Assembly: GCA_016699995.1 (NCBI GenBank)
Contig: CP064996.1
Span: 478,330 to 526,583, forward strand
Length of the DNA stretch: 48,254 nucleotides
Reading direction: 5' to 3'
DNA from: a bacterium
GTDB taxonomy: Bacteria > Patescibacteriota > Doudnabacteria > UBA920
This document shows positions 1,990-15,122 of the stretch, in pieces; position 1 is the first letter of the stretch; each line of letters opens with the position of its first letter. Position numbers and translations under genes: made by a program. The notes beneath the pieces are model-generated. The model was not told the DNA's origin and made no database searches. It saw only the letters and a list, made by a program, of their open reading frames with translations.

Positions 1990-3924
1990 GTGTCCGAAAG
2001 ACGACATTCATTGGATATCATTCCCGATATTGGCGTTCCTAAAAACGGCTTCGAGCTCCAGCACAGGGAAGAAGTATTCTTATCAGAGCAAACAGAGCAA
2101 CGAATTGAGCAAGATACATTGCCCGGTTTTTTAAGTATTGCAAAGGAGGCTGGTGCCAATGAAGAAGAATTGGACCGCCTAGAAGCATGCTACAAAGCTC
2201 TTGGAAGGCGCCCAAGCCAGATTGGGGTAAGCTATGGGTTTCATTTTTCAAACGATGGTAAGTATTTTGGCCCTGTTGTGGGATTAGATCGGCATTACCA
2301 TGCTATGCCTGACGTACTATCGGGCACTGATTTTAAAATTAGACCAGGAGTGGAAAAGCCAAAAATCGCGCCGGTGGACAGTGATAGAATTATGGACACG
2401 TTTGCCAAAGCCAGAATTATGTTCAGTTCCACAGATAACCAGGAGTATCGGGATAAGGTAAATGCCTACGAGAAATCAATTACCAAAATAAACCGCATCA
2501 TGTACAGAGTGCATGACGCTCTTCATATCTATCAAAATATTTTAATCGGGGACGAAATCAACGCTTTAAAATCAAAATTTTCGATGGCCGGCTGGACAAA
2601 TGAGGATGTAGAAAGAAGACTAATTAAGCGTGGTAATTACGCCAAGCTCATCGATTGGCAGCCACCAAAATGGGCAAAGGATTCTATTTTTACTAACCAG
2701 GACGTTCCGGAATACGCAGACATTCCCGACCATAATCCACAAGTGGTTAACAATGAGGCCACAATGGATGTTATGTCCGAATGGCTTTTAAAAGAAGAGC
2801 TTTCCAAGGAACCAGAGCTGATGCTATGGCTCCATAACACAATTACCCATGCAGTTGACGGGCTAAAAGCTATAAGGGAGCAATACCAATCTATAAACAA
2901 TTTGGACAACGCCGACACTTTGCCGCATAAACAGATCGAGCATATTTTAAACATGATATCAGCTGCTTATTTTGCAGTATACGAAAATTCCGAACAGGCA
3001 AAATCAGACTTGATCGAAAAGGAATATTCCGTTGCAGGCCGCCCAGCGCAAGCCACCATCGCCGAAGGTAGTTATTTTGATAGGTGCACCGTCCTGAATT
3101 TAATTTCAGAGCTCCATGAGTACTCGGAGCTGATTATCGCTTACCATGGCTCCCGCCAATTCGGCACCGAAAGAGATGCGAGAGCCGAAGAATATATGGC
3201 CATTAAAAAGAATAAGGCCAGCTTTCCTTCAGGGCAAGAGTGGTCTGCACAAAATTACGTACATGGCCCAATTACCACCAAAGGAGTAGAGACTGCTGCC
3301 AAAATTACTGCCAGCGTAGCCGAAAATAAAGGTAACCTGGACGACCTGATGGCCCTTTTCATGCAGATTCAATCCAGTATGGATGAATCATCGACCCCAG
3401 AAACGCAACAAACTATGCAAACTGCGGTTGCAAAAAGGATAAAAAATTTATACGGTATGGATTTAAATTCCAATGATATTCTTGAAATGAGAAATATTTT
3501 CCATTACATAGACATGTCCGGCCAGCTGAGCAAAGATAAATATCCCTATCAATATGTAATCAGAAAAAAGATAATGGAGCAGATGAAAAATGCTCAGCCC
3601 GAGCAAATTAATCAGCTTATTAAGTGGACAGTGTTTGAATTCCCCATGTATTTTCGTAAAGGCGATTATTTGGAGCTTACCGGATTCGGGGAAGTAGCAA
3701 CAGAAGAGACGCGGATGGACGCAGAGACAAGAAAAGTTCTGCCGTGGGAAAAGATTCTCGCCAGCCATAAGTTAGGCTTATTCAATATTAATATGAAAGC
3801 CCTGCCGCCCGAACAAATTGCAGAAATCAAAGCTCTATACGACCGCGGTTATAAAAAGCATGACCATACCGAAGACTTACGCATTCTGGCAAATATTGCT
3901 AAAATGCAGAAACAAATTGCTTAA
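1990..3924 (+). CDS. hypothetical protein, 644 aa, no domain recognised
   Basis: Long uninterrupted ORF with a GTG start. It lies 11 nt after the NYN gene and ends 6 nt before the PIN gene. No motif recognised by eye. Confidence 0.6.
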   Translation: MSERRHSLDIIPDIGVPKNGFELQHREEVFLSEQTEQRIEQDTLPGFLSIAKEAGANEEELDRLEACYKALGRRPSQIGVSYGFHFSNDGKYFGPVVGLDRHYHAMPDVLSGTDFKIRPGVEKPKIAPVDSDRIMDTFAKARIMFSSTDNQEYRDKVNAYEKSITKINRIMYRVHDALHIYQNILIGDEINALKSKFSMAGWTNEDVERRLIKRGNYAKLIDWQPPKWAKDSIFTNQDVPEYADIPDHNPQVVNNEATMDVMSEWLLKEELSKEPELMLWLHNTITHAVDGLKAIREQYQSINNLDNADTLPHKQIEHILNMISAAYFAVYENSEQAKSDLIEKEYSVAGRPAQATIAEGSYFDRCTVLNLISELHEYSELIIAYHGSRQFGTERDARAEEYMAIKKNKASFPSGQEWSAQNYVHGPITTKGVETAAKITASVAENKGNLDDLMALFMQIQSSMDESSTPETQQTMQTAVAKRIKNLYGMDLNSNDILEMRNIFHYIDMSGQLSKDKYPYQYVIRKKIMEQMKNAQPEQINQLIKWTVFEFPMYFRKGDYLELTGFGEVATEETRMDAETRKVLPWEKILASHKLGLFNINMKALPPEQIAEIKALYDRGYKKHDHTEDLRILANIAKMQKQIA

Positions 3925-3930
3925 TAATAT

Positions 3931-4374
3931 ATGAAAATAGTATTAGATACCAATGTAATTATCGACGGGATTAAGGATGAATACTCCTACGAAAAACAGA
4001 TTATAGATGCGGTCAGAGCAGGGGAAATAGAAGCCTATGCCAATCGCCAGACTATTCAGGAAAACAAGCTTATCATGCGCCGCTTGGTGGAAAACCCCGA
4101 ATACGAAAAAGAAATCGCCGACTTATTAACTCAAATCAACCAAGTGGTAAACCGCCGCCAGATTAACATTGTCCGCGATCCGGAAGATAATAAAATTTTA
4201 GAAAGCGCGGTGGAAGCAAGGGCCGAATACTTAGTAACCCGCGACAACGACCTGCTGTCTTTAGAAGAATACGAAGGCGTTCAAATTGTAAATCCTTCTC
4301 AATTCTGGGTGCGCTACAAAGACGAAGGCAACGACATCTGGAAGCAGTGGGCTGGCTTTTTTAATGGGAAGTAG
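3931..4374 (+). CDS. PIN-domain protein (PIN_3 / toxin-type nuclease)
   Basis: N-terminal IVLDTNVIID and C-terminal ILESAVEARAEYLVTRDNDLL supply the acidic PIN residues. Confidence 0.8.
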   Translation: MKIVLDTNVIIDGIKDEYSYEKQIIDAVRAGEIEAYANRQTIQENKLIMRRLVENPEYEKEIADLLTQINQVVNRRQINIVRDPEDNKILESAVEARAEYLVTRDNDLLSLEEYEGVQIVNPSQFWVRYKDEGNDIWKQWAGFFNGK

Positions 4375-4427
4375 GGTAATTAGGGCAAATATACCTAGCC
4401 TTCGGCATGGCACAATAATAAGGTAAA

Positions 4428-4456
4428 ATAAAAAAGCGGTGGAATGCCGCTTATTA
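4428..4456. terminator. bidirectional intrinsic terminator between convergent genes
   Basis: Stem aagcgg/ccgctt (4434-4439 / 4447-4452). An A-run lies on the left and a T-rich tract on the right. It is strongest when read on the minus strand. Confidence 0.55.
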
Positions 4457-4774
4457 CTTTGTTTCATGGTCAGCCTTTTTGCTGCCCGCATGAATGACTC
4501 GGATTCTATAAAACTGGACAGCCGTTTTCTTATCCACTCCGCCATCAATGGATCCGCCTACCAGGAAAGCATTAGCGCCGTTTGGAAGCTGCTTCCTAAG
4601 TGATTCGTTAAACAATTGCCGATCATTTTTGCCTTCTTTAAAAACATGGCGGGTAACAACTATCTTCGGCTCTCCGATGGGAATAGCGTCAACTTCAGAA
4701 GACTTTTTTCTGAATCGAAAACTATTAGTGCGATTTTCTTTAATATAAATTCTCCTCAATTTGACCGTTGTCAT
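4454..4774 (-). CDS. hypothetical protein, 106 aa
   Basis: ORF with a terminator directly downstream. The overlapping plus-strand ORFs look spurious. No motif recognised. Confidence 0.45.
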   Translation of the reverse strand: MTTVKLRRIYIKENRTNSFRFRKKSSEVDAIPIGEPKIVVTRHVFKEGKNDRQLFNESLRKQLPNGANAFLVGGSIDGGVDKKTAVQFYRIRVIHAGSKKADHETK

Positions 4775-4824
4775 CTTTCCTCCTCAACTGATTTAGTTCA
4801 TCAATATAACTAAAAATTATTTAA

Positions 4825-7761
4825 ATGTCAAAACTGCTCGAAGGGCTCAACAATGAACAGCTTCAAGCCGTAACCCATGCCACTGGGCCGCTGTTAATCG
4901 TGGCAGGAGCCGGCACAGGAAAAACAACCGTTATCACTCGCCGCATAGCTTATTTAATGGAACAAAAGCTAGCTGATCCTAAGCAAATCCTAGCTTTAAC
5001 ATTTACAGACAAAGCTGCGGGGGAAATGGAAGCCAGGGTAGAGCAATATCTTCCTTTAGGCAGTTACGATTTATGGATATCTACTTTCCACAGTTTCTGC
5101 GAACGAATAATTAAGCAGCATGGCATCGACATCGGCCTAAGTAATGACTTCGAGCTTCTAGACAAAACTCGGCAGTGGATTTTTGTTTATAAACATTTTG
5201 AAAAATTCGAGCTGGATTACTATCGCCCGATCGGCAGTCCCAACAAGTTTATAGACTCCCTGCTGGATCATTTTTCCAAATGCAAAGATGAAATGATTTC
5301 CCCGGAGGACTATTTGGAATACGCCGAACAGCTACGGCTGAGCGCCGGACAAAACGAACTTCCTTTAGGCAATGAAGACGAGACCGTCGTCGAAATTAAG
5401 CGCGTTGAAGAGCTGGCCAAAGCTTACCACACTTACCAACAGCTCTTGCTCGATAACGAGTATATGGACTTTGGCGATTTGATCCATTATGCTATCCGGC
5501 TGCTGCAAAAACGCCCGAATATTTTAAAATATTACCAGCAGCAATTTAAATTCATCATGATCGATGAATTTCAGGACACCAATGTTGCTCAGTACGACTT
5601 GATCAAATTGCTGGCGGGAACAGAGCAAAATCTGGTTGTGGTAGGGGATGATGACCAGTCAATTTACAAATTCCGCGGCGCTTCTGTATCGAATATTTTA
5701 AAGCTCAAGGACGACTATCCAACAATTAAAGAAATAACTCTTGTCGACAACTACCGCAGCAATCAGAAAATTTTAGATATCGCTTATAACTTCATTCAAG
5801 CTAACAACCCCAATCGACTAGAGCCAAAGCTAAATATTAATAAACGGCTTAAAGGGCATAATAAAGACAAAAGCCAAGTTCAGGTTATCGAGGGCAAAGA
5901 CTTAAGTGAAGAGCTAAATTTAGTAGTAGATCAGGCTCTAAAACTAAAAGAAGAATTTCCATCCGCCACGTGGAATGATTTTGCTATTTTGACCCGCGCC
6001 AATAGCGCGGCAACAGAAATTATTCCACTCCTCGACGCAAAAGGAGTGCCATATAGTTTTATGGCCAATCGCGGCTTATACCGCAAACCCCTGATTGCAG
6101 ATCTGATTAACTATCTCCGCTTGATGGACAACTATCACGAGTCGAGCAGTTTGTATCGGGTTTTAAACTTCCCTAAGTTCCATATTGATGCGATTGATGT
6201 GGCTCATCTGACTCAATTTACTAACCGCCGGACTATTTCTCTGTACGACGCTCTGCATAATGACGAAGCCTTGTCTATGCTTAACGAAGGTTCGGTAGTA
6301 AGAATAAAAACCCTGCTATCTTTGCTAGAGGTGCATTCAAAACTCACCACGGAAAAGTCCGCCGTCGAACTGTTCGTACAAATTATCGATGATCTGGAAA
6401 TCGATCTACTGCTAAACGAGGACACTTTAGAAAATGCTCAGAACCGGGAATTACTAGAGCAATTCTATAAAACCATAGAGGCATATTGCCAAACAGAGGA
6501 CGACCGCACCATGCGAGGCTATTTGAGCCGGCTGAATTTGGAACTTAAAGCGGGTGAAGAAGGGGCGCTTAAGTTTGATCCGGATAGCGGGCCAGAAAGC
6601 TTAAAAGTAATGACTGTCCACAGCTCAAAGGGGTTGGAATTCAAATTTGTATTCGTCATCAATATGGTGGACCAAAGATTCCCAACCAGGGCCAAAAGAG
6701 ACAATATAGAACTGCCGGAACAGCTTATTAAAGACATTCTGCCGGAAGGAGATTTTCATCTACAGGAAGAACGCCGCTTGTTCTATGTGGCGATAACGCG
6801 CGCCAAAACTCATTTATATCTTTCCTGGGCCAAAGACTACGGAGGAGCGAAAGAGAAGAGGCCATCACTGTTTCTGTCGGAAACTCAATTGGTTCCAACA
6901 GAAACTGCCAAGAAAGCGACTGGGAAGGTTGTATTCACCAAACCCTCCAGCTCGAGAGGAAAGAAGCAAGTTTATCAGGATCTACCGACCCATTTTTCTT
7001 TCAGCCAAATTAGCCAGTTCATAAACTGTCCGCTGGATTACAAATATAGATACTATTTAAGATTACCCATGAAGGGTAATCATCACCTAAGCTTTGGATC
7101 AACGATCCATGCCGTACTGCAAAAATATTTGGAACAATACCAGCGGGAGCTAAGCGCACGACAACAAGACTTATTCAGCAAGCAGGCTAATGCGGAGCTT
7201 CCTCCAGAAGAACTACTGTCAGAGCTTTATGAAAAAGAATGGATCGATGACTGGTATCAGACCAAGCAACAAAAAGAAGACTACAGGCAGCGGGGAAAGC
7301 AAATACTAAGGTCCTTTTATGAGTATTCACAGAAGAACAAGCCCAACCCATCCCTAATCGAGCAGCCATTTACCTTGAAGTTAGGCGTAAACAAAGAGTA
7401 TCAGTTTAACGGCAAAATTGACCGCGCCGATATTAGCGACGGAGGTTTAAAAATCATCGATTATAAAACTTCTGAAAAAGTTCCAAAAAAACCAGATGGC
7501 AACGATCTGGATCAGCTGCGCATTTACCAATGGGCAGCGGAAGAATTCTTTCATCAGCCAGTGGCTTCGCTGCAGTATTGGTACGTATATCCAAACCAGC
7601 TAGTACAAACACCTTTGGCAACGCCAGAGCAATTAACTGCACTGAAAGAGAAACTGCTAACGACCATAGAAGAAATTCGGGAAGCTGTTAAATTCGACCT
7701 GTTTTCCAAGCTTCATAAAAAGAGCAAGCAGCACACCTGCGACTACGCTGACTTAATGTAA
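4825..7761 (+). CDS. UvrD/PcrA/AddA-type SF1 helicase fused to a C-terminal PD-(D/E)XK (Cas4/AddB-like) nuclease domain
   Basis: Helicase motifs AGAGTGKT, MIDEFQDTN, VGDDDQSIYKFRGA, DNYRS, VHSSKGLEFKFVFV and RRLFYVAITRAK. The C-terminus has FSQISQFINCPLDYKYRYYL, IDRADISDGGLKIIDYKTS and a terminal Cys. Confidence 0.9.
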   Translation: MSKLLEGLNNEQLQAVTHATGPLLIVAGAGTGKTTVITRRIAYLMEQKLADPKQILALTFTDKAAGEMEARVEQYLPLGSYDLWISTFHSFCERIIKQHGIDIGLSNDFELLDKTRQWIFVYKHFEKFELDYYRPIGSPNKFIDSLLDHFSKCKDEMISPEDYLEYAEQLRLSAGQNELPLGNEDETVVEIKRVEELAKAYHTYQQLLLDNEYMDFGDLIHYAIRLLQKRPNILKYYQQQFKFIMIDEFQDTNVAQYDLIKLLAGTEQNLVVVGDDDQSIYKFRGASVSNILKLKDDYPTIKEITLVDNYRSNQKILDIAYNFIQANNPNRLEPKLNINKRLKGHNKDKSQVQVIEGKDLSEELNLVVDQALKLKEEFPSATWNDFAILTRANSAATEIIPLLDAKGVPYSFMANRGLYRKPLIADLINYLRLMDNYHESSSLYRVLNFPKFHIDAIDVAHLTQFTNRRTISLYDALHNDEALSMLNEGSVVRIKTLLSLLEVHSKLTTEKSAVELFVQIIDDLEIDLLLNEDTLENAQNRELLEQFYKTIEAYCQTEDDRTMRGYLSRLNLELKAGEEGALKFDPDSGPESLKVMTVHSSKGLEFKFVFVINMVDQRFPTRAKRDNIELPEQLIKDILPEGDFHLQEERRLFYVAITRAKTHLYLSWAKDYGGAKEKRPSLFLSETQLVPTETAKKATGKVVFTKPSSSRGKKQVYQDLPTHFSFSQISQFINCPLDYKYRYYLRLPMKGNHHLSFGSTIHAVLQKYLEQYQRELSARQQDLFSKQANAELPPEELLSELYEKEWIDDWYQTKQQKEDYRQRGKQILRSFYEYSQKNKPNPSLIEQPFTLKLGVNKEYQFNGKIDRADISDGGLKIIDYKTSEKVPKKPDGNDLDQLRIYQWAAEEFFHQPVASLQYWYVYPNQLVQTPLATPEQLTALKEKLLTTIEEIREAVKFDLFSKLHKKSKQHTCDYADLM

Positions 7762-8963: not shown

Positions 8964-9338
8964 GTGATACACCAGACTACCAAGCAATATTTGCTCCCAT
9001 TACTGGCTGGTAGCGTGGTCGCTATCACCGGGTTTATCTTTACAATTATCTACACTGACCCCTATCAGGCAGGAGTTTTAGGTCATATCATCTTCTACCT
9101 GACCTTATTCCTATTTACTTGCGGAATTTTCAGCATCATCAACCTGCTGATACGTAAAAGATTCTTTCCGGGGATATATTCGGAATTATTCCGAGTAAGC
9201 TTAAGGCAAGGGATTATTATCGGAATACTCATTACCAGCCTAGTATTTCTAGAAGCGATAAACCTCCTTTTCTGGTGGGTAGGGCTCACACTTGCGCTCT
9301 TCCTGATTGCTCTGGAATCATTTTTGACATCAAACTAA
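8964..9338 (+). CDS. hypothetical multi-pass membrane protein
   Basis: GTG-start ORF with four hydrophobic helices. TGgTATAAT lies at 8946-8954, 9 nt upstream. Confidence 0.5.
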   Translation: MIHQTTKQYLLPLLAGSVVAITGFIFTIIYTDPYQAGVLGHIIFYLTLFLFTCGIFSIINLLIRKRFFPGIYSELFRVSLRQGIIIGILITSLVFLEAINLLFWWVGLTLALFLIALESFLTSN

Positions 9339-9345
9339 AAATAAA

Positions 9346-10755
9346 ATGGCCGCAACACAAGAACACACACCATTCTACAATGTAATGCCAGACGTAACTA
9401 CTGGCACTATTACCAAACCGAAGACATCTCCGGTTGTTGCTACTGCGCCTGTTAGCGCTAAGCCTGCGGCGGATTTACCTCAACCACCAAAGATCAAAAG
9501 CGGCCCAATTAGCATCCCGCCAGCAGCGCGAAGGGCAAGCAAAAAGCGTTTTTACATATTCTTGGCGATCGCTTTATTTATAATCATCACCGCCACCGGA
9601 GCCGGCTTCTATCTAATGATGTCTAACGATCAAGCGGAGGATAACGGCGCCAAGGTCGCGAATAACGAAGAACAAGCCAATCCGGATGTCACCACTCCTG
9701 GGGAATGGCTGCAACGATACTTCGGCGCAGAAACTTGTACAGAACTGGTTACCTGCGGCGACAAATCCGACCCGGATCGGGATGGTATGGACAATAAGTC
9801 CGAATATGAAAAGGGCACCGATCCTAACAATAACGACAGTGACCGTGACGGTATTGCCGACGGAGATGAAGTCTTAATTTTTGGCAGCGATCCCTTGATC
9901 TCAAAAACTTACCGTGAAGGAACATATACCGACTCTGATTTCATTAAAGGCGGTTATGACATTCAGACCAACGAACCATACACCAACGAGCGATTGCTGA
10001 CAATTAAAACAATGATCAAGCAATACGGCTTGCATCAACCGACACTTACTACGCTGGGAACACTATCTTTTCAGTTATACGAATTTACCGATCCTAGCCA
10101 GCCAAGCCTGCCGGCAGACTTGGACCTCAGCCCCCAAGCCAAGCTAGACCGCGACAGTCAGCGGCAAAGCACCATTAAAAAAGTAGGGGCAGCTTTGTTA
10201 AAGTACCAGGCAGAAAAAAAGAGCTATCCTCCAACTGACGACTTTGTGGTAATGGCGGACATGGTTAAGTCATTTAATCCGGTAGCTACCAATTACAATG
10301 ACCCCATTGCTCGCGATCCTTATGTTTACGGATATACTGCAACAAGCAATAATGCCGATTTCGTACTTACTTACTACAGCGAAACCCAAAATCAGCTCAT
10401 CAAATACTTTGCAAAAGACGCCCAGGCTGATGCCGCTAAAGATACCAGCAAACAGGCCGATGAACAGAGAAAGCGGGATTTGGAAAATATCGCTGAGGCC
10501 TTATTAACATATTCTTTGACTCAAATAGAACCCGACAGCGACAAAGAATTTGTTTTCCCTGCAGCCGATAAGCTTCGCTCCTCTCTAATTCCAAAATACA
10601 TGACCCAAATGCCGACTGACCCAATCAGTAAGCTTGATTACCTATACCAGGTTGGTCCCGCGTTCGACACCTTTACCATTAAGGCGCAGTTGCAAAATCC
10701 AACCACCGGCACCACTGGTTATATGTGTAATCAAGACGAATGTAAAGCTTATTAA
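9346..10755 (+). CDS. membrane-anchored secreted protein with Asp-rich Ca-binding-type repeats and two pseudopilin-like segments
   Basis: A TM helix at about aa 70-90. DPDRDGMDNKSEYEKGTDPNNNDSDRDGIADGDE resembles thrombospondin type-3 repeats. Segments AALLKYQAEKKSYP and EALLTYSL resemble T2SS-G/pilin-like folds. Confidence 0.6.
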   Translation: MAATQEHTPFYNVMPDVTTGTITKPKTSPVVATAPVSAKPAADLPQPPKIKSGPISIPPAARRASKKRFYIFLAIALFIIITATGAGFYLMMSNDQAEDNGAKVANNEEQANPDVTTPGEWLQRYFGAETCTELVTCGDKSDPDRDGMDNKSEYEKGTDPNNNDSDRDGIADGDEVLIFGSDPLISKTYREGTYTDSDFIKGGYDIQTNEPYTNERLLTIKTMIKQYGLHQPTLTTLGTLSFQLYEFTDPSQPSLPADLDLSPQAKLDRDSQRQSTIKKVGAALLKYQAEKKSYPPTDDFVVMADMVKSFNPVATNYNDPIARDPYVYGYTATSNNADFVLTYYSETQNQLIKYFAKDAQADAAKDTSKQADEQRKRDLENIAEALLTYSLTQIEPDSDKEFVFPAADKLRSSLIPKYMTQMPTDPISKLDYLYQVGPAFDTFTIKAQLQNPTTGTTGYMCNQDECKAY

Positions 10756-10757
10756 CG

Positions 10758-11216
10758 ATGTTAAATTTCCTAAAAAATTTCTTTGGAGTAAAAACTGCAA
10801 ACGCTCCGTCTATAGATGACAATAGCCAGGCGGCTAACAAACCGGCTAGCAAAACTATCGGTGATCCTCTGATTATCGCAGCCAAAGTTACAAAAATCGA
10901 AAAGCACCCTAACGCGGATAGACTCCGCGTTATTAGCTTAACCGATGGTACAAGAACCATAGAGCCTGTGATTTGCGGAGCATTCAACTTTGTAGAAGGG
11001 GATATAGTGGCCCTAGCCTTACCCGGCGCTAAAATCGCCCAAAACATTCATTCCGATACTCACGAATCATTTATATTGGGTACAGCCAAAATACGGGGTA
11101 TAGAAAGCCAAGGCATGATCTGCGCACAATTCGAGCTGGGGTTAACATCCGAACCGGGAGATAAGCCGGAAATTATGATATTGCCGGCAAACACGGAACT
11201 TGGTAAAATGCTATAA
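10758..11216 (+). CDS. stand-alone tRNA-binding domain protein (PheT N-terminal/EMAP/CsaA-like)
   Basis: KIEKHPNADRLRVISLTDG...PVICGAFNFVEGDIVALALPGAKI matches the OB-fold tRNA-binding domain found at the N-terminus of bacterial PheT. Confidence 0.8.
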   Translation: MLNFLKNFFGVKTANAPSIDDNSQAANKPASKTIGDPLIIAAKVTKIEKHPNADRLRVISLTDGTRTIEPVICGAFNFVEGDIVALALPGAKIAQNIHSDTHESFILGTAKIRGIESQGMICAQFELGLTSEPGDKPEIMILPANTELGKML

Positions 11217-11218
11217 CT

Positions 11219-12367
11219 ATGGCAAATTTAGAAATTTCACCCCAGGAGCTTGAGCGCCAGAAAGCGCTCATCGCTGAGCTCGACAAAAGAACAGACAGTG
11301 AAGCCGGCCGCATCAAGCGGTATTTAAATATGGCTGACTTGTCCCGCCAAGACTCCGGACCCATCCGGGAATTAGTGAATAACATAACCGGACTGGACCA
11401 ATTTAAAGATTTTGACATTATCAAGATACCAGAAATCGTACCAGCAAGCGCAAGCTTCGATTTATTCAACTTTCCAGAAGACCATGTAGCTCGCAGCAAA
11501 AGCGATACTTATTATGTAGATGATGAAAACATTCTCCGCACCCATACTACGGTTATGTGGTGGTATTACTTCCAAAAGGAAGAGGTTAAAGCAAAAATGG
11601 TTGCGAACCAGCCATTAGGGGTTTTATGTCATGGAAAAGTTTATCGCAAAGACGAAATCGACCGCAACCACATGAATATCTTTCACCAAATGGATGGACT
11701 ATACCTTCACCCCACCAGCGAGCGGACTATAACCCAGGATGACCTTAAAGAAGCATTAGCAAATGTTGTAAAAGCCGCTTTCGGTGCCGATGTAAAATAT
11801 CGATTCAATGACGACAATTTCCCTTACACTCATTCTTCTTTAGAAATGGAAGTGGACAAAGACGGGCAATGGATAGAAGTGCTCGGAGCCGGCTTAGTGC
11901 AGCCTGGGGTTTTAGAAAAGCTGAATGTGGATCCAAACCAGTATAATGGCTGGGCCTTCGGCTTCGGCTTGGAAAGGTTAGCTATTATAGGCATGGAGCT
12001 GCCAGATATCCGCTTATTATGGAGCCAGGATCCGCGCGTAACCAAACAGCTAAAACTGGGGCGAAAATTTGTGGAGGTCAGTAAATACCCTCCGATTATT
12101 CGCGATATTTCATTCATCGTAGATAAGTCCTTTGAACCCAATACTTACTTCGACTTGATCCGCGATATCGGGGGCGACCTGGTAGAGCAGGTTGAACTTT
12201 TAGATAAATATGAAAATGCAGAAAAATTCGGAGCGGACAAGGTGTCTTACACTTACCGCATCACGTATCGCAGCACAGAGCGCACCTTAGAAGCCGAAGA
12301 AATAGAGCCGCTTCAGGACCAGATATACAAACAAACGGCGGAACAATTTGGCGCCGAGCTGCGATAA
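11219..12367 (+). CDS. pheS: phenylalanyl-tRNA synthetase, single-chain mitochondrial-type (PheS catalytic core fused to an FDX-ACB anticodon-binding domain)
   Basis: Class II core: RTHTT, GKVYRKDEIDRNHMNIFHQMDG, FPYTHSSLEMEV and GWAFGFGLERLAII. The C-terminal KYPPIIRDISFIV...DLIRDIGGDLVEQVELLDKY...YRITYRSTERTL is an FDX-ACB domain, collinear with mitochondrial PheRS as I recall it. Confidence 0.85.
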   Translation: MANLEISPQELERQKALIAELDKRTDSEAGRIKRYLNMADLSRQDSGPIRELVNNITGLDQFKDFDIIKIPEIVPASASFDLFNFPEDHVARSKSDTYYVDDENILRTHTTVMWWYYFQKEEVKAKMVANQPLGVLCHGKVYRKDEIDRNHMNIFHQMDGLYLHPTSERTITQDDLKEALANVVKAAFGADVKYRFNDDNFPYTHSSLEMEVDKDGQWIEVLGAGLVQPGVLEKLNVDPNQYNGWAFGFGLERLAIIGMELPDIRLLWSQDPRVTKQLKLGRKFVEVSKYPPIIRDISFIVDKSFEPNTYFDLIRDIGGDLVEQVELLDKYENAEKFGADKVSYTYRITYRSTERTLEAEEIEPLQDQIYKQTAEQFGAELR

Positions 12368-12378
12368 AGCATCATTGA

Positions 12379-12408
12379 CAACATACCGATTCATTGGTAT
12401 GTTGTTTT
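12379..12408 (+). terminator. intrinsic terminator after pheS
   Basis: 9-bp stem caacatacc/ggtatgttg followed by tttt. Confidence 0.7.
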
Positions 12409-12437
12409 AAATTGAAAACCTAAGGGAGGTTTGTTGA

Positions 12438-12875
12438 ATGGAGTATATTCAATTCACTGATAACCGCTATGGCATAGTATGTCCGGGCAAAGCTCTTACA
12501 GGCCAAACACATTTACTGCGTATCAAAGGTGCGCTATATCCGGACAGTAACAAAATAAATACCCATCGCTTTGGCTATGCATTGGTTGAGAATTTAAGAA
12601 AGCTATGGATGATTTATGACATTTCCGACCCTGGAAAAAAGGTATCAACTATAAAGCACAAATTGGCAGTTACCCAGTTTTTTGTAAACTTTTCTTTTAG
12701 GGCTTTCCTTTACGAAAAGCACGCGCCTTGCAAAGGATCAATTTTTGGTGGCAAGACGTTTGAGGAAATTACTAAAAATTACATGTACAGAGTTAAGTGC
12801 CTGGAAACCGGTTTAGAGCAGAAACTTGACCCCATCGAGATCGAGTTGAAATTGAAAAAATCTATATCAATTTAA
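12438..12875 (+). CDS. hypothetical protein, 145 aa
   Basis: ORF preceded by GGGAGG 8 nt upstream and followed by a terminator. No motif recognised. Confidence 0.5.
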   Translation: MEYIQFTDNRYGIVCPGKALTGQTHLLRIKGALYPDSNKINTHRFGYALVENLRKLWMIYDISDPGKKVSTIKHKLAVTQFFVNFSFRAFLYEKHAPCKGSIFGGKTFEEITKNYMYRVKCLETGLEQKLDPIEIELKLKKSISI

Positions 12876-12884
12876 TCTCAATAT

Positions 12885-12908
12885 ACCGCATATTCATGCG
12901 GTTTTTTA
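12885..12908 (+). terminator. intrinsic terminator
   Basis: Stem accgcat/atgcggt followed by tttttatt. Confidence 0.7.

Positions 12909-12971: not shown

Positions 12972-15122
<2,151 letters not shown>

Follow-up and report, generated by a model that had tools for sequence, protein, structure and literature searches.

The locus described here lies in a 48,254-nucleotide stretch of DNA (positions 478,330 to 526,583 of contig CP064996.1; hereafter the window) from a member of the Doudnabacteria, an ultra-small bacterium of the candidate phyla radiation (CPR)/Patescibacteria. It consists of a gene for a single-chain phenylalanyl-tRNA synthetase (PheRS) and, immediately upstream, a small gene for an OB-fold tRNA-binding protein (hereafter the OB gene and the OB protein). 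The window is located inside a single contig of 943,189 bp, and the genome is 96.65% complete. The two genes and the domains of the synthetase (lengths in amino acids, aa) are arranged as follows:

10758..11216, plus strand: OB gene, encoding a 152-aa stand-alone OB-fold tRNA-binding protein (Pfam tRNA_bind); the retained 5′ end of pheT (N-terminus and B2 domain)
11219..12367, plus strand: single-chain PheRS, 382 aa (PheS-type core and FDX-ACB domain); the sole PheRS candidate of the genome
11351..12049, plus strand: class II catalytic core of the synthetase, residues 45–277 (Pfam tRNA-synt_2d), with motifs 2 and 3 and the Phe pocket
12080..12364, plus strand: FDX-ACB (B8-type) anticodon-binding domain of the synthetase, residues 288–382 (Pfam FDX-ACB)

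In this bacterium, the two-subunit, proofreading PheRS appears to have been replaced by a one-chain enzyme built like the mitochondrial one. Reviews describe the heterotetramer as conserved in all known prokaryotes and the monomeric form as unique to organelles, the mitochondrial enzyme being the only monomeric class II synthetase (PMC3275996). AARS Online (2024) limits its example of the single-chain type, PheRS-M, to the human mitochondrial enzyme (3CMQ, FARS2). A full-text literature search found no paper describing a bacterial single-chain PheRS or the protein families SrmL and TapR, both of which are considered below.

Domains, residues and predicted fold of the synthetase

The domain structure of the 382-aa protein was established with Pfam, which detected tRNA-synt_2d at residues 45–277 (E 8e-54) and FDX-ACB at residues 288–382 (E 8e-26, covering profile positions 1–94 of 94). 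A PheS N-terminal domain was not detected by the same search. The FDX-ACB region also aligns with positions 694–798 of the NCBIfam model pheT_bact. A first-pass annotation, made from the sequence alone, had already proposed a PheS-type core joined directly to a C-terminal FDX-ACB domain; this architecture and the open reading frame (ORF) coordinates proved exact, and the sequence motifs quoted there are present in the protein. One stretch, DIRLxW..D.R..KQ, was considered as a junction common only to the mitochondrial enzyme, a view that we withdraw, as the alignment shows it to be the ordinary C-terminal tail of canonical PheS.

The residues expected of a PheRS active site are conserved in the alignment, including R143 of motif 2, F155-H156-Q157 and R253 of motif 3. 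T204 and A246, both conserved, align with T251 and A294 of the Escherichia coli enzyme, positions which we take to be Phe-pocket determinants. The sole change among the residues checked is a conservative one, Asp at position 159 in place of the Glu of E. coli, and Asp is also present at the equivalent position in some mitochondrial-type rows. Judged by this alignment, the catalytic and Phe-pocket residues of the synthetase are intact. The ratio of nonsynonymous to synonymous substitution rates (dN/dS) is 0.014–0.023, an approximate value since dS is near saturation.

The mitochondrial, monomeric type of architecture suggested by the first-pass annotation is borne out by both sequence and predicted fold. 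The best match of solved structure by sequence is human mitochondrial PheRS (201 bits, E 2e-58), compared to 139 bits for the best bacterial alpha subunit. An AlphaFold2 model of the synthetase (predicted local distance difference test, pLDDT, 95.3; predicted template modeling score, pTM, 0.90) has 3CMQ as its best fold match, which extends over the whole chain (template modeling score, TM, 0.77/0.73; root-mean-square deviation 3.4; 388 columns). The open, tRNA-bound form of the same enzyme (3TUP) gives a TMq of 0.58, and the fold match of bacterial alpha subunits to the model is limited to the core.

In three relatives, the single-chain PheRS gene is found in two pieces (L011 in G018:C1, G005:C15 and G039:C6); in G018, an in-frame TAA results in ORFs of 204 and 173 aa. 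These cases could represent assembly errors, pseudogenes or real splits.

PheRS genes and tRNAs in the genome and in related bacteria

Six-frame profile searches of the whole genome were used to look for other PheRS components. The pheT_bact model gave no match beyond the OB gene and the synthetase, and the pheS model matched the synthetase only, apart from a 29-bit match in an unrelated 517-aa ORF. Neither the B3_4 editing domain (PF03483) nor B5 (PF03484) was detected anywhere in the genome, each of which was found by the same approach in all 14 of the 14 control genomes. Because this near-complete, one-contig genome contains neither a second pheS nor a pheT, nor any B3/B4 or B5 domain, the 382-aa protein is very probably its only PheRS and has no editing domain. 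The earlier claim that no B3/B4 domain is encoded at the locus thus holds for the genome as a whole, and no full-length pheT lies elsewhere on the contig.

The tRNA partner of the enzyme is encoded in the genome. Its only tRNA-Phe(GAA) gene, at C1:882909-883194 (plus strand), is interrupted in the anticodon loop by a 211-nt intron that Rfam assigns to group I (RF00028, 56.9 bits; gathering score 50); once spliced, the tRNA folds into a normal cloverleaf, which has A73 and whose CCA end is encoded. The possibility that the gene is missing, raised by a default ARAGORN run, can therefore be ruled out, since the gene is there and is interrupted by the intron. The sole tRNA-Tyr(GTA) gene (G000:C1:425209-425487, minus strand) also has an intron in the anticodon loop, of 192 nt, which matches group I introns with 31 bits (E 1e-5), below the Rfam gathering score; the default ARAGORN run overlooks both genes. 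In addition, the genome has a tRNA-Ile with the anticodon UAU, just two CAU tRNAs and an ARAGORN 'tRNA-???' with a four-base anticodon (cgtc); the coordinates for this observation are G000:C1:897522-897598, 478258-478430 and 889688-889761.

To date, 41 genomes of the order have been compared, and the two forms of PheRS are mutually exclusive among them. An orthologue of the synthetase with 58–91% identity, and no pheT above the cutoff, was found in 36 genomes; most of these orthologues are full length, the exceptions being a few that are split or truncated by the end of a contig. The remaining five genomes (G025, G030, G031, G035 and G040) have a canonical PheS of approximately 340 aa, which is 30–33% identical to the query core, together with a PheT of 767–806 aa (610–653 bits). 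The single-chain form and canonical pheS/pheT occur together in none of the 41. Thus, in the window genome and in the relatives searched genome-wide, the single-chain form stands in for the canonical enzyme. The canonical PheS proteins of these five sisters (L038–L042, from G031, G035, G040, G030 and G025) are themselves 36–39% identical to E. coli PheS, compared to 41–50% for other CPR PheS, and those displayed (G035 and G031) are odd at near-invariant sites, with YQY or YDY for FHQ in motif 2 and SR for ER in motif 3.

In a sample of 301 genomes from the phylum, approximately 25 have the single-chain form, namely those of the window's own order and the scattered outsiders G046, G179, G274, G314 and G301; the remainder give canonical-type matches, a tally that includes the unpublished genome G190, on which no individual conclusion depends. 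In several lineages, canonical PheS-like matches lie inside open frames of approximately 990–1300 aa (G292:C1:233886-234563, G273:C1:79251-79922, G251, G103, G120, G096, G226, G257 and G209), two of which have no internal stop and the others one, which suggests PheS–PheT fusions or read-through.

On a wider scale, a genome scan found that at least 571 GTDB species genomes encode a relative of the single-chain enzyme. Named carriers include Wolfe-, Harrison-, Taylor-, Moran-, Staskawicz-, Lipton-, Zambryski-, Vogel-, Niyogi- and Doudnabacteria as well as Paceibacterota, and a Candidatus Doudnabacteria metagenome-assembled genome (MAG), L140, is 80% identical in the synthetase and 74% in the OB protein, which points to a place of the window's bacterium in or close to this group. 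Three small genomes (0.8–1.0 Mb) have the single-chain enzyme and a stand-alone B2-like OB gene, with no pheT. FDX-ACB is also present in nearly all proteins of at least 330 aa among the top 150 (111 examined) from an exhaustive search through 1.84 billion representative proteins. Compact proteins of 345–367 aa (P0203, P0207, P0225, P0232 and others) score above the pheS_mito cutoff and fall in the mitochondrial-type clade of the tree described below. Database labels for such proteins vary from 'alpha chain' (JGI) and 'putative phenylalanine--tRNA ligase' (ESM Atlas) to, often, 'hypothetical protein' (NCBI), and because many single-chain PheRS carry this last label, those genomes appear to have no PheRS. 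Two larger MAGs, an Oligoflexia MAG (G331, L073, 3.4 Mb) and a Pseudomonadota MAG (G332, L074, 2.6 Mb), have a member of the bacterial single-chain clade plus a canonical-type PheT; in G332, the PheT match begins at model position 160, and the B1/B2 region is apparently absent. This co-occurrence could mean that a second PheRS is present or that the MAGs are contaminated.

Origin of the OB gene and phylogeny of the synthetase

The first-pass annotation placed a 152-aa gene with nothing but an OB-fold domain two nucleotides upstream of the synthetase, which is what we find: Pfam detects tRNA_bind (PF01588) at residues 40–150 (E 4e-16, 59.2 bits against a threshold of 27, profile positions 2–95 of 96), and the spacer is TAA-ct-ATG. 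The E-values of the domain matches in both proteins are well outside the range of chance. The resemblance to PheT noted at the time also stands, as the protein aligns with positions 46–148 of the 798 in pheT_bact (TIGR00472), which is the B2 region, with 94 bits against a cutoff of 402.65; it is not a full-length PheT. It falls below the cutoffs of the stand-alone NCBIfam families YtpR (NF045760, 74.2 against 100) and TapR (NF045867, 42.7 against 120).

The origin of the gene is evident from its genomic context, for which the following features of the window serve as reference points:

4825-7761: UvrD/PD-(D/E)XK helicase-nuclease; upstream syntenic anchor (synteny BLAST)
8964..9338, plus strand: small ORF, 124 aa; syntenic anchor, no Pfam family
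9346..10755, plus strand: gene X, 469 aa; syntenic anchor (Pfam TSP3_bac, 22.4 bits, under its cutoff)
12438-12875, plus strand: 145-aa ORF between the synthetase and gyrB; no Pfam family
12975..15122, plus strand: gyrB; downstream syntenic anchor

By synteny BLAST, the gene order in the canonical relatives G030, G031 and G035 is UvrD-nuclease, small ORF, pheS, X, pheT and gyrB, whereas the window, G026 and G036 have UvrD-nuclease, small ORF, X, OB gene, synthetase and gyrB. A homologue of the small ORF is followed by pheS in G030 and G035, and G031 has an unmatched 127-aa ORF at that position; in the window, pheS is missing between the small ORF and gene X. Gene X, which has homologues in L067–L072, is 361–523 aa long and wedged between pheS and pheT in the canonical relatives, and the pheST operon of this taxonomic order had therefore already been split before the replacement. 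gyrB follows pheT in the canonical relatives and the single-chain gene both here and in many other Patescibacteria, and it is within the flank of 37 of the 80 named loci. It follows from this synteny that the OB gene occupies the pheT slot, that the synthetase stands in place of the remaining part of pheT, and that pheS was deleted from its own slot.

Sequence comparisons point in the same direction. The OB protein is 50–64% identical to residues ~5–163 of the full-length PheT of the sister genomes, starting from the N-terminus, and 34–37% identical to E. coli PheT. For the synthetase, by contrast, identity to the sister proteins is only approximately 30% between its core and PheS and 22–27% between its FDX-ACB domain and the PheT C-termini. 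In a tree of the B2 domain, stand-alone OB proteins, fused OB domains and the B2 domains of sister PheT form one clade (support 99/98, or 95/95 without an artefactual row). A hint of several independent origins of the stand-alone gene, given by PheT B2 domains nesting among the OB genes, is unsupported, as a single origin is not rejected by an approximately unbiased (AU) test (p 0.55). The OB gene is the in-situ, vertically inherited 5′ remnant of the lineage's own pheT, which refines the earlier description of it as a PheT-like domain: it is not a new module. Taken together, synteny, sequence identities and the B2 tree make the synthetase look like a xenologue that replaced both pheS and pheT, with the OB gene left as a stub.

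The evolutionary position of the synthetase was analyzed in a tree of the catalytic core (189 rows, 234 columns; IQ-TREE quick search, LG+C20+F+G4 by posterior mean site frequency (PMSF), SH-aLRT support, unrooted). Canonical PheS (28 rows, 19 from CPR and 9 from named phyla) lie on one side (99) and the 161 single-chain rows on the other (99). Within the latter, a bacterial clade of 37 rows (98) comprises the window's order, CPR outsiders, Gracilibacteria and an Oligoflexia protein, and its sister group (87) consists of the SrmL clade (100) and a mitochondrial-type clade of 116 rows (90), which holds every named eukaryotic enzyme. The first-pass annotation was correct in setting the protein apart from the canonical bacterial enzyme, but its place is in a bacterial clade of its own, with the SrmL and mitochondrial-type groups together as sister, and not inside the mitochondrial one. 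A tree of the FDX-ACB domain (99 columns, quick search) is congruent with weaker support (PheT B8 versus single-chain 91, SrmL 99, bacterial clade 87, mitochondrial-type 87). The congruence of the two domain trees implies that core and FDX-ACB share one history, which fits a single ancient fusion. Based on these comparisons, the 382-aa protein is predicted to work like PheRS-M and lies outside TIGR00469 proper, SrmL and canonical PheS.

The SrmL clade is long-branched; its anchor is a protein from an Azotobacter plasmid with a score of 515 bits against the SrmL model. This true SrmL (L066) is encoded on the Azotobacter chroococcum plasmid NZ_CP066311.1 (308 kb) at locus 3827-4939, where it is annotated as a hypothetical protein; it has a DUF4942 gene on one side and an HNH endonuclease on the other, and transposases are found in the vicinity.

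Within the locus, gene X and the OB gene are separated by 2 nt as well (TAA-cg-ATG). A terminator scan found no plus-strand terminator-like site from 8964 to 12885, which is weak context at most, as both the promoter and the terminator scans performed no better than on shuffled sequence. With the same reservation, the 145-aa ORF has a promoter-like site ahead of it (12375-12403) and a terminator-like hairpin after it (12885-12902). This ORF has no homologue in the loci of the six relatives compared by synteny BLAST and may be a lineage-specific insertion; in G036, the synthetase and gyrB are approximately 50 nt apart.

Interpretation of the locus and comparison with known systems

We consider it quite probable that the 382-aa protein is the sole, housekeeping PheRS of this bacterium, that its gene is a xenologue inserted in pheT, and that the OB gene is the surviving 5′ end of pheT. 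In such a system, the PheS-type class II core would activate Phe and transfer it to tRNA-Phe, and the C-terminal FDX-ACB domain would read the GAA anticodon. The protein is probably a monomer whose anticodon-binding domain swings open upon tRNA binding, as in its human mitochondrial counterpart. With neither a beta subunit nor a B3/B4 site, discrimination against Tyr would therefore have to come from the synthetic site alone, and proofreading is presumably lacking in vivo. As for its history, the single-chain gene probably arrived as a xenologue, was inserted into the ancestral pheT and replaced all pheT sequence past B2, pheS being afterwards deleted from its own slot two genes upstream. The OB protein most likely helps the minimal synthetase to capture tRNA.

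The proposed role of the OB protein draws on several lines of evidence. Its gene is, by sequence comparison, functional and under strong purifying selection: dN/dS is 0.05–0.07 where dS is estimable (1.7–2.8, near saturation), the alignment has 36 invariant columns, including HPNADRL and RGxESQGMIC, and the frame is intact in all 14 relatives aligned. In most other single-chain genomes, the OB match likewise has no internal stop. In G029 and in the majority of genomes from families f1, f3 and f5, the OB gene immediately precedes the synthetase gene, and it does so too in distant lineages, including Moranbacteria, whose OB proteins are 33–38% identical to that of the window. In addition, eight protein clusters of 504–520 aa (NCBI, JGI, ENA and Logan), known from protein sequences alone, have tRNA_bind, core and FDX-ACB in one chain. 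A predicted complex of the OB protein and the synthetase, with separate alignments for each, gave a score of 0.02 and returned no answer, which speaks neither for nor against binding. The trans-acting tRNA-binding module envisaged by the first-pass annotation is thus supported only indirectly, by fusions, purifying selection and conserved adjacency, and it cannot be an obligatory part of the enzyme, as two relatives have no tRNA_bind domain at all.

Several observations weigh against the above interpretation. The synthetase scores below every NCBIfam cutoff of the PheRS type (SrmL, 260 against 300; pheS_mito, 239.4 against 258.35; pheS, 166.7 against 237.45). For the mitochondrial-type family TIGR00469, on which named eukaryotic enzymes score 389–472, this means that the architecture proposed at first pass agrees and membership in the family does not. 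Activity, oligomeric state and fidelity are read from homology, the closed-state fold of the model may stem from AlphaFold training on 3CMQ, and the near-saturation of dS makes the dN/dS values of both genes approximate. With regard to the OB protein, its gene is upstream in just five of the 80 named loci; relatives of families f4 and f6, with the same X–synthetase–gyrB site, have no OB gene; no PF01588 domain occurs anywhere in G032 (98% complete) or G034 (94%), despite the presence of the synthetase; and tRNA_bind in G027, G037 and G314 is limited to an unlinked protein of 108–118 aa. Because some genomes combine this synthetase with a complete lack of tRNA_bind domains, the OB protein is accessory rather than obligatory. 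Moreover, as the only tRNA_bind domain in the genome, it could serve tRNAs generally and not PheRS specifically.

This last point leads to an alternative that accepts the synthetase as described and takes the OB protein for a general stand-alone tRNA-binding protein or chaperone of the Trbp111/CsaA/YtpR kind, kept as the cell's only tRNA_bind module, with its adjacency to the synthetase a matter of history. Besides the single PF01588 domain of the genome and the relatives with unlinked tRNA_bind proteins or none, it is favored by the best solved match to the OB profile, 3BU2, a stand-alone 'putative tRNA-binding protein', and by the partial match to the YtpR model. According to Mukai et al. 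(2017; PMC5370408), many PheRS-beta subunits of CPR have no B2 domain, and some CPR have B2 fused to TyrRS or LysRS. In the same paper, B2 of bacterial PheRS is reported, with reference to Roy and Ibba (2006), to be dispensable for aminoacylation and to contribute to tRNA binding and editing. However, a general role does not account well for the eight clusters in which OB is fused to single-chain PheRS itself, for the 2-nt-spacer adjacency conserved across several families, or for the same gene order in distant lineages at such low identity. We therefore regard this alternative as rather unlikely, albeit one to be taken seriously, and the OB protein as most likely a conserved, non-essential accessory tRNA-binding factor, as its sequence conservation and patchy occurrence suggest.

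Much less credible is an accessory role for the 382-aa protein as an SrmL-like ligase that acts on a different substrate, with Phe-tRNA-Phe made by the product of an unassembled gene or supplied by a host. SrmL is its top NCBIfam match by score, and the Oligoflexia and Pseudomonadota MAGs mentioned above carry a relative beside canonical-type PheT, but the score is under the family cutoff and the true SrmL forms a fully supported clade of its own. The single near-complete contig without another PheRS, the perfect exclusivity with pheST in the 41 genomes, the canonical Phe-pocket and catalytic residues and the position of the gene in the pheT slot all argue against it, which makes it very improbable. 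Equally improbable is that the disruption of pheT left behind an OB ORF that has no function and is still awaiting decay, since, for all that this ORF is a truncated pheT 5′ end by origin and has been lost in some relatives, its low dN/dS at dS above 1.6, its invariant columns, its intact frames and its natural fusions to the synthetase speak for a gene in use.

If the sole-enzyme interpretation is true, Phe-tRNA-Phe is made across a large bacterial radiation by an enzyme that lacks the conserved Tyr-editing site, which bears on translational fidelity in reduced genomes, and the pheT stub is a natural experiment on the 'dispensable' B2 domain, which is found in free, fused and lost states in related genomes. 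It would also provide bacterial sister groups with which the origin of mitochondrial PheRS could be tested phylogenetically. A broader hypothesis, which we offer tentatively and rate as slightly short of an even prospect, is that all single-chain forms, i.e., the Patescibacteria enzyme, SrmL and mitochondrial PheRS, go back to a single ancient event in which a PheS core was joined to a B8-type FDX-ACB domain. Monomeric PheRS would then not have been invented in eukaryotes; it would descend from, or share a donor with, a bacterial lineage that still uses the editing-free form as its sole enzyme, and in some members, a fragment of the beta subunit would have been re-used as a trans-acting, occasionally re-fused, tRNA-binding cofactor.

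Among known systems, mitochondrial PheRS (human FARS2 and yeast MSF1; TIGR00469; 3CMQ closed, 3TUP open with tRNA) is the closest in design. Both enzymes have a PheS-type core followed by FDX-ACB, both are without a beta subunit and B3/B4 (here, as an absence from the genome only), their whole-chain folds are predicted to be alike (3CMQ, TM 0.77/0.73), and both are set apart from the canonical subunits in the core and FDX-ACB trees. The window enzyme differs in being bacterial, in being the only PheRS of its cell, in belonging to a separate clade and in being accompanied, in this lineage, by a pheT-derived OB protein. It is also shorter (382 aa compared to 415–470) and does not have the insertion that splits the mitochondrial hidden Markov model alignment in two.

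With the canonical (alpha-beta)2 PheRS (TIGR00468 and TIGR00472; E. coli 3PCO, Thermus thermophilus 1PYS), the enzyme shares a homologous core, motifs 2 and 3 and the pocket residues. Its FDX-ACB domain is homologous to PheT B8, and the OB protein is homologous to, and derived from, PheT B2. On the other hand, B1 and B3–B7 are absent here, including the B3/B4 editing site and B5, and the catalytic chain itself carries the anticodon-binding domain. Unlike canonical PheS (TIGR00468), the window protein falls below the family cutoff, has no PheT partner in its genome and lies across a supported split (99) in the core tree from the 28 canonical PheS.

SrmL, the 'PheS-related mystery ligase' (NF051887), has the same two-part architecture, its model aligns with the window protein end to end (positions 13–347 of 349), and it is on the single-chain side of the tree. 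However, the window protein scores 260 bits against a cutoff of 300, whereas the true SrmL reaches 515 bits in a separate clade and has diverged motif residues, e.g., PHQ for FHQ.

Finally, trans-acting cofactors of aminoacyl-tRNA synthetases exist elsewhere, such as Arc1p of yeast. Similar to the stand-alone tRNA_bind proteins Trbp111/CsaA/YgjH and YtpR (3BU2, 3ERS), the OB protein consists of approximately one PF01588 OB fold, but its sequence, its position in the tree and its synteny mark it as a truncated PheT that lies outside these families.

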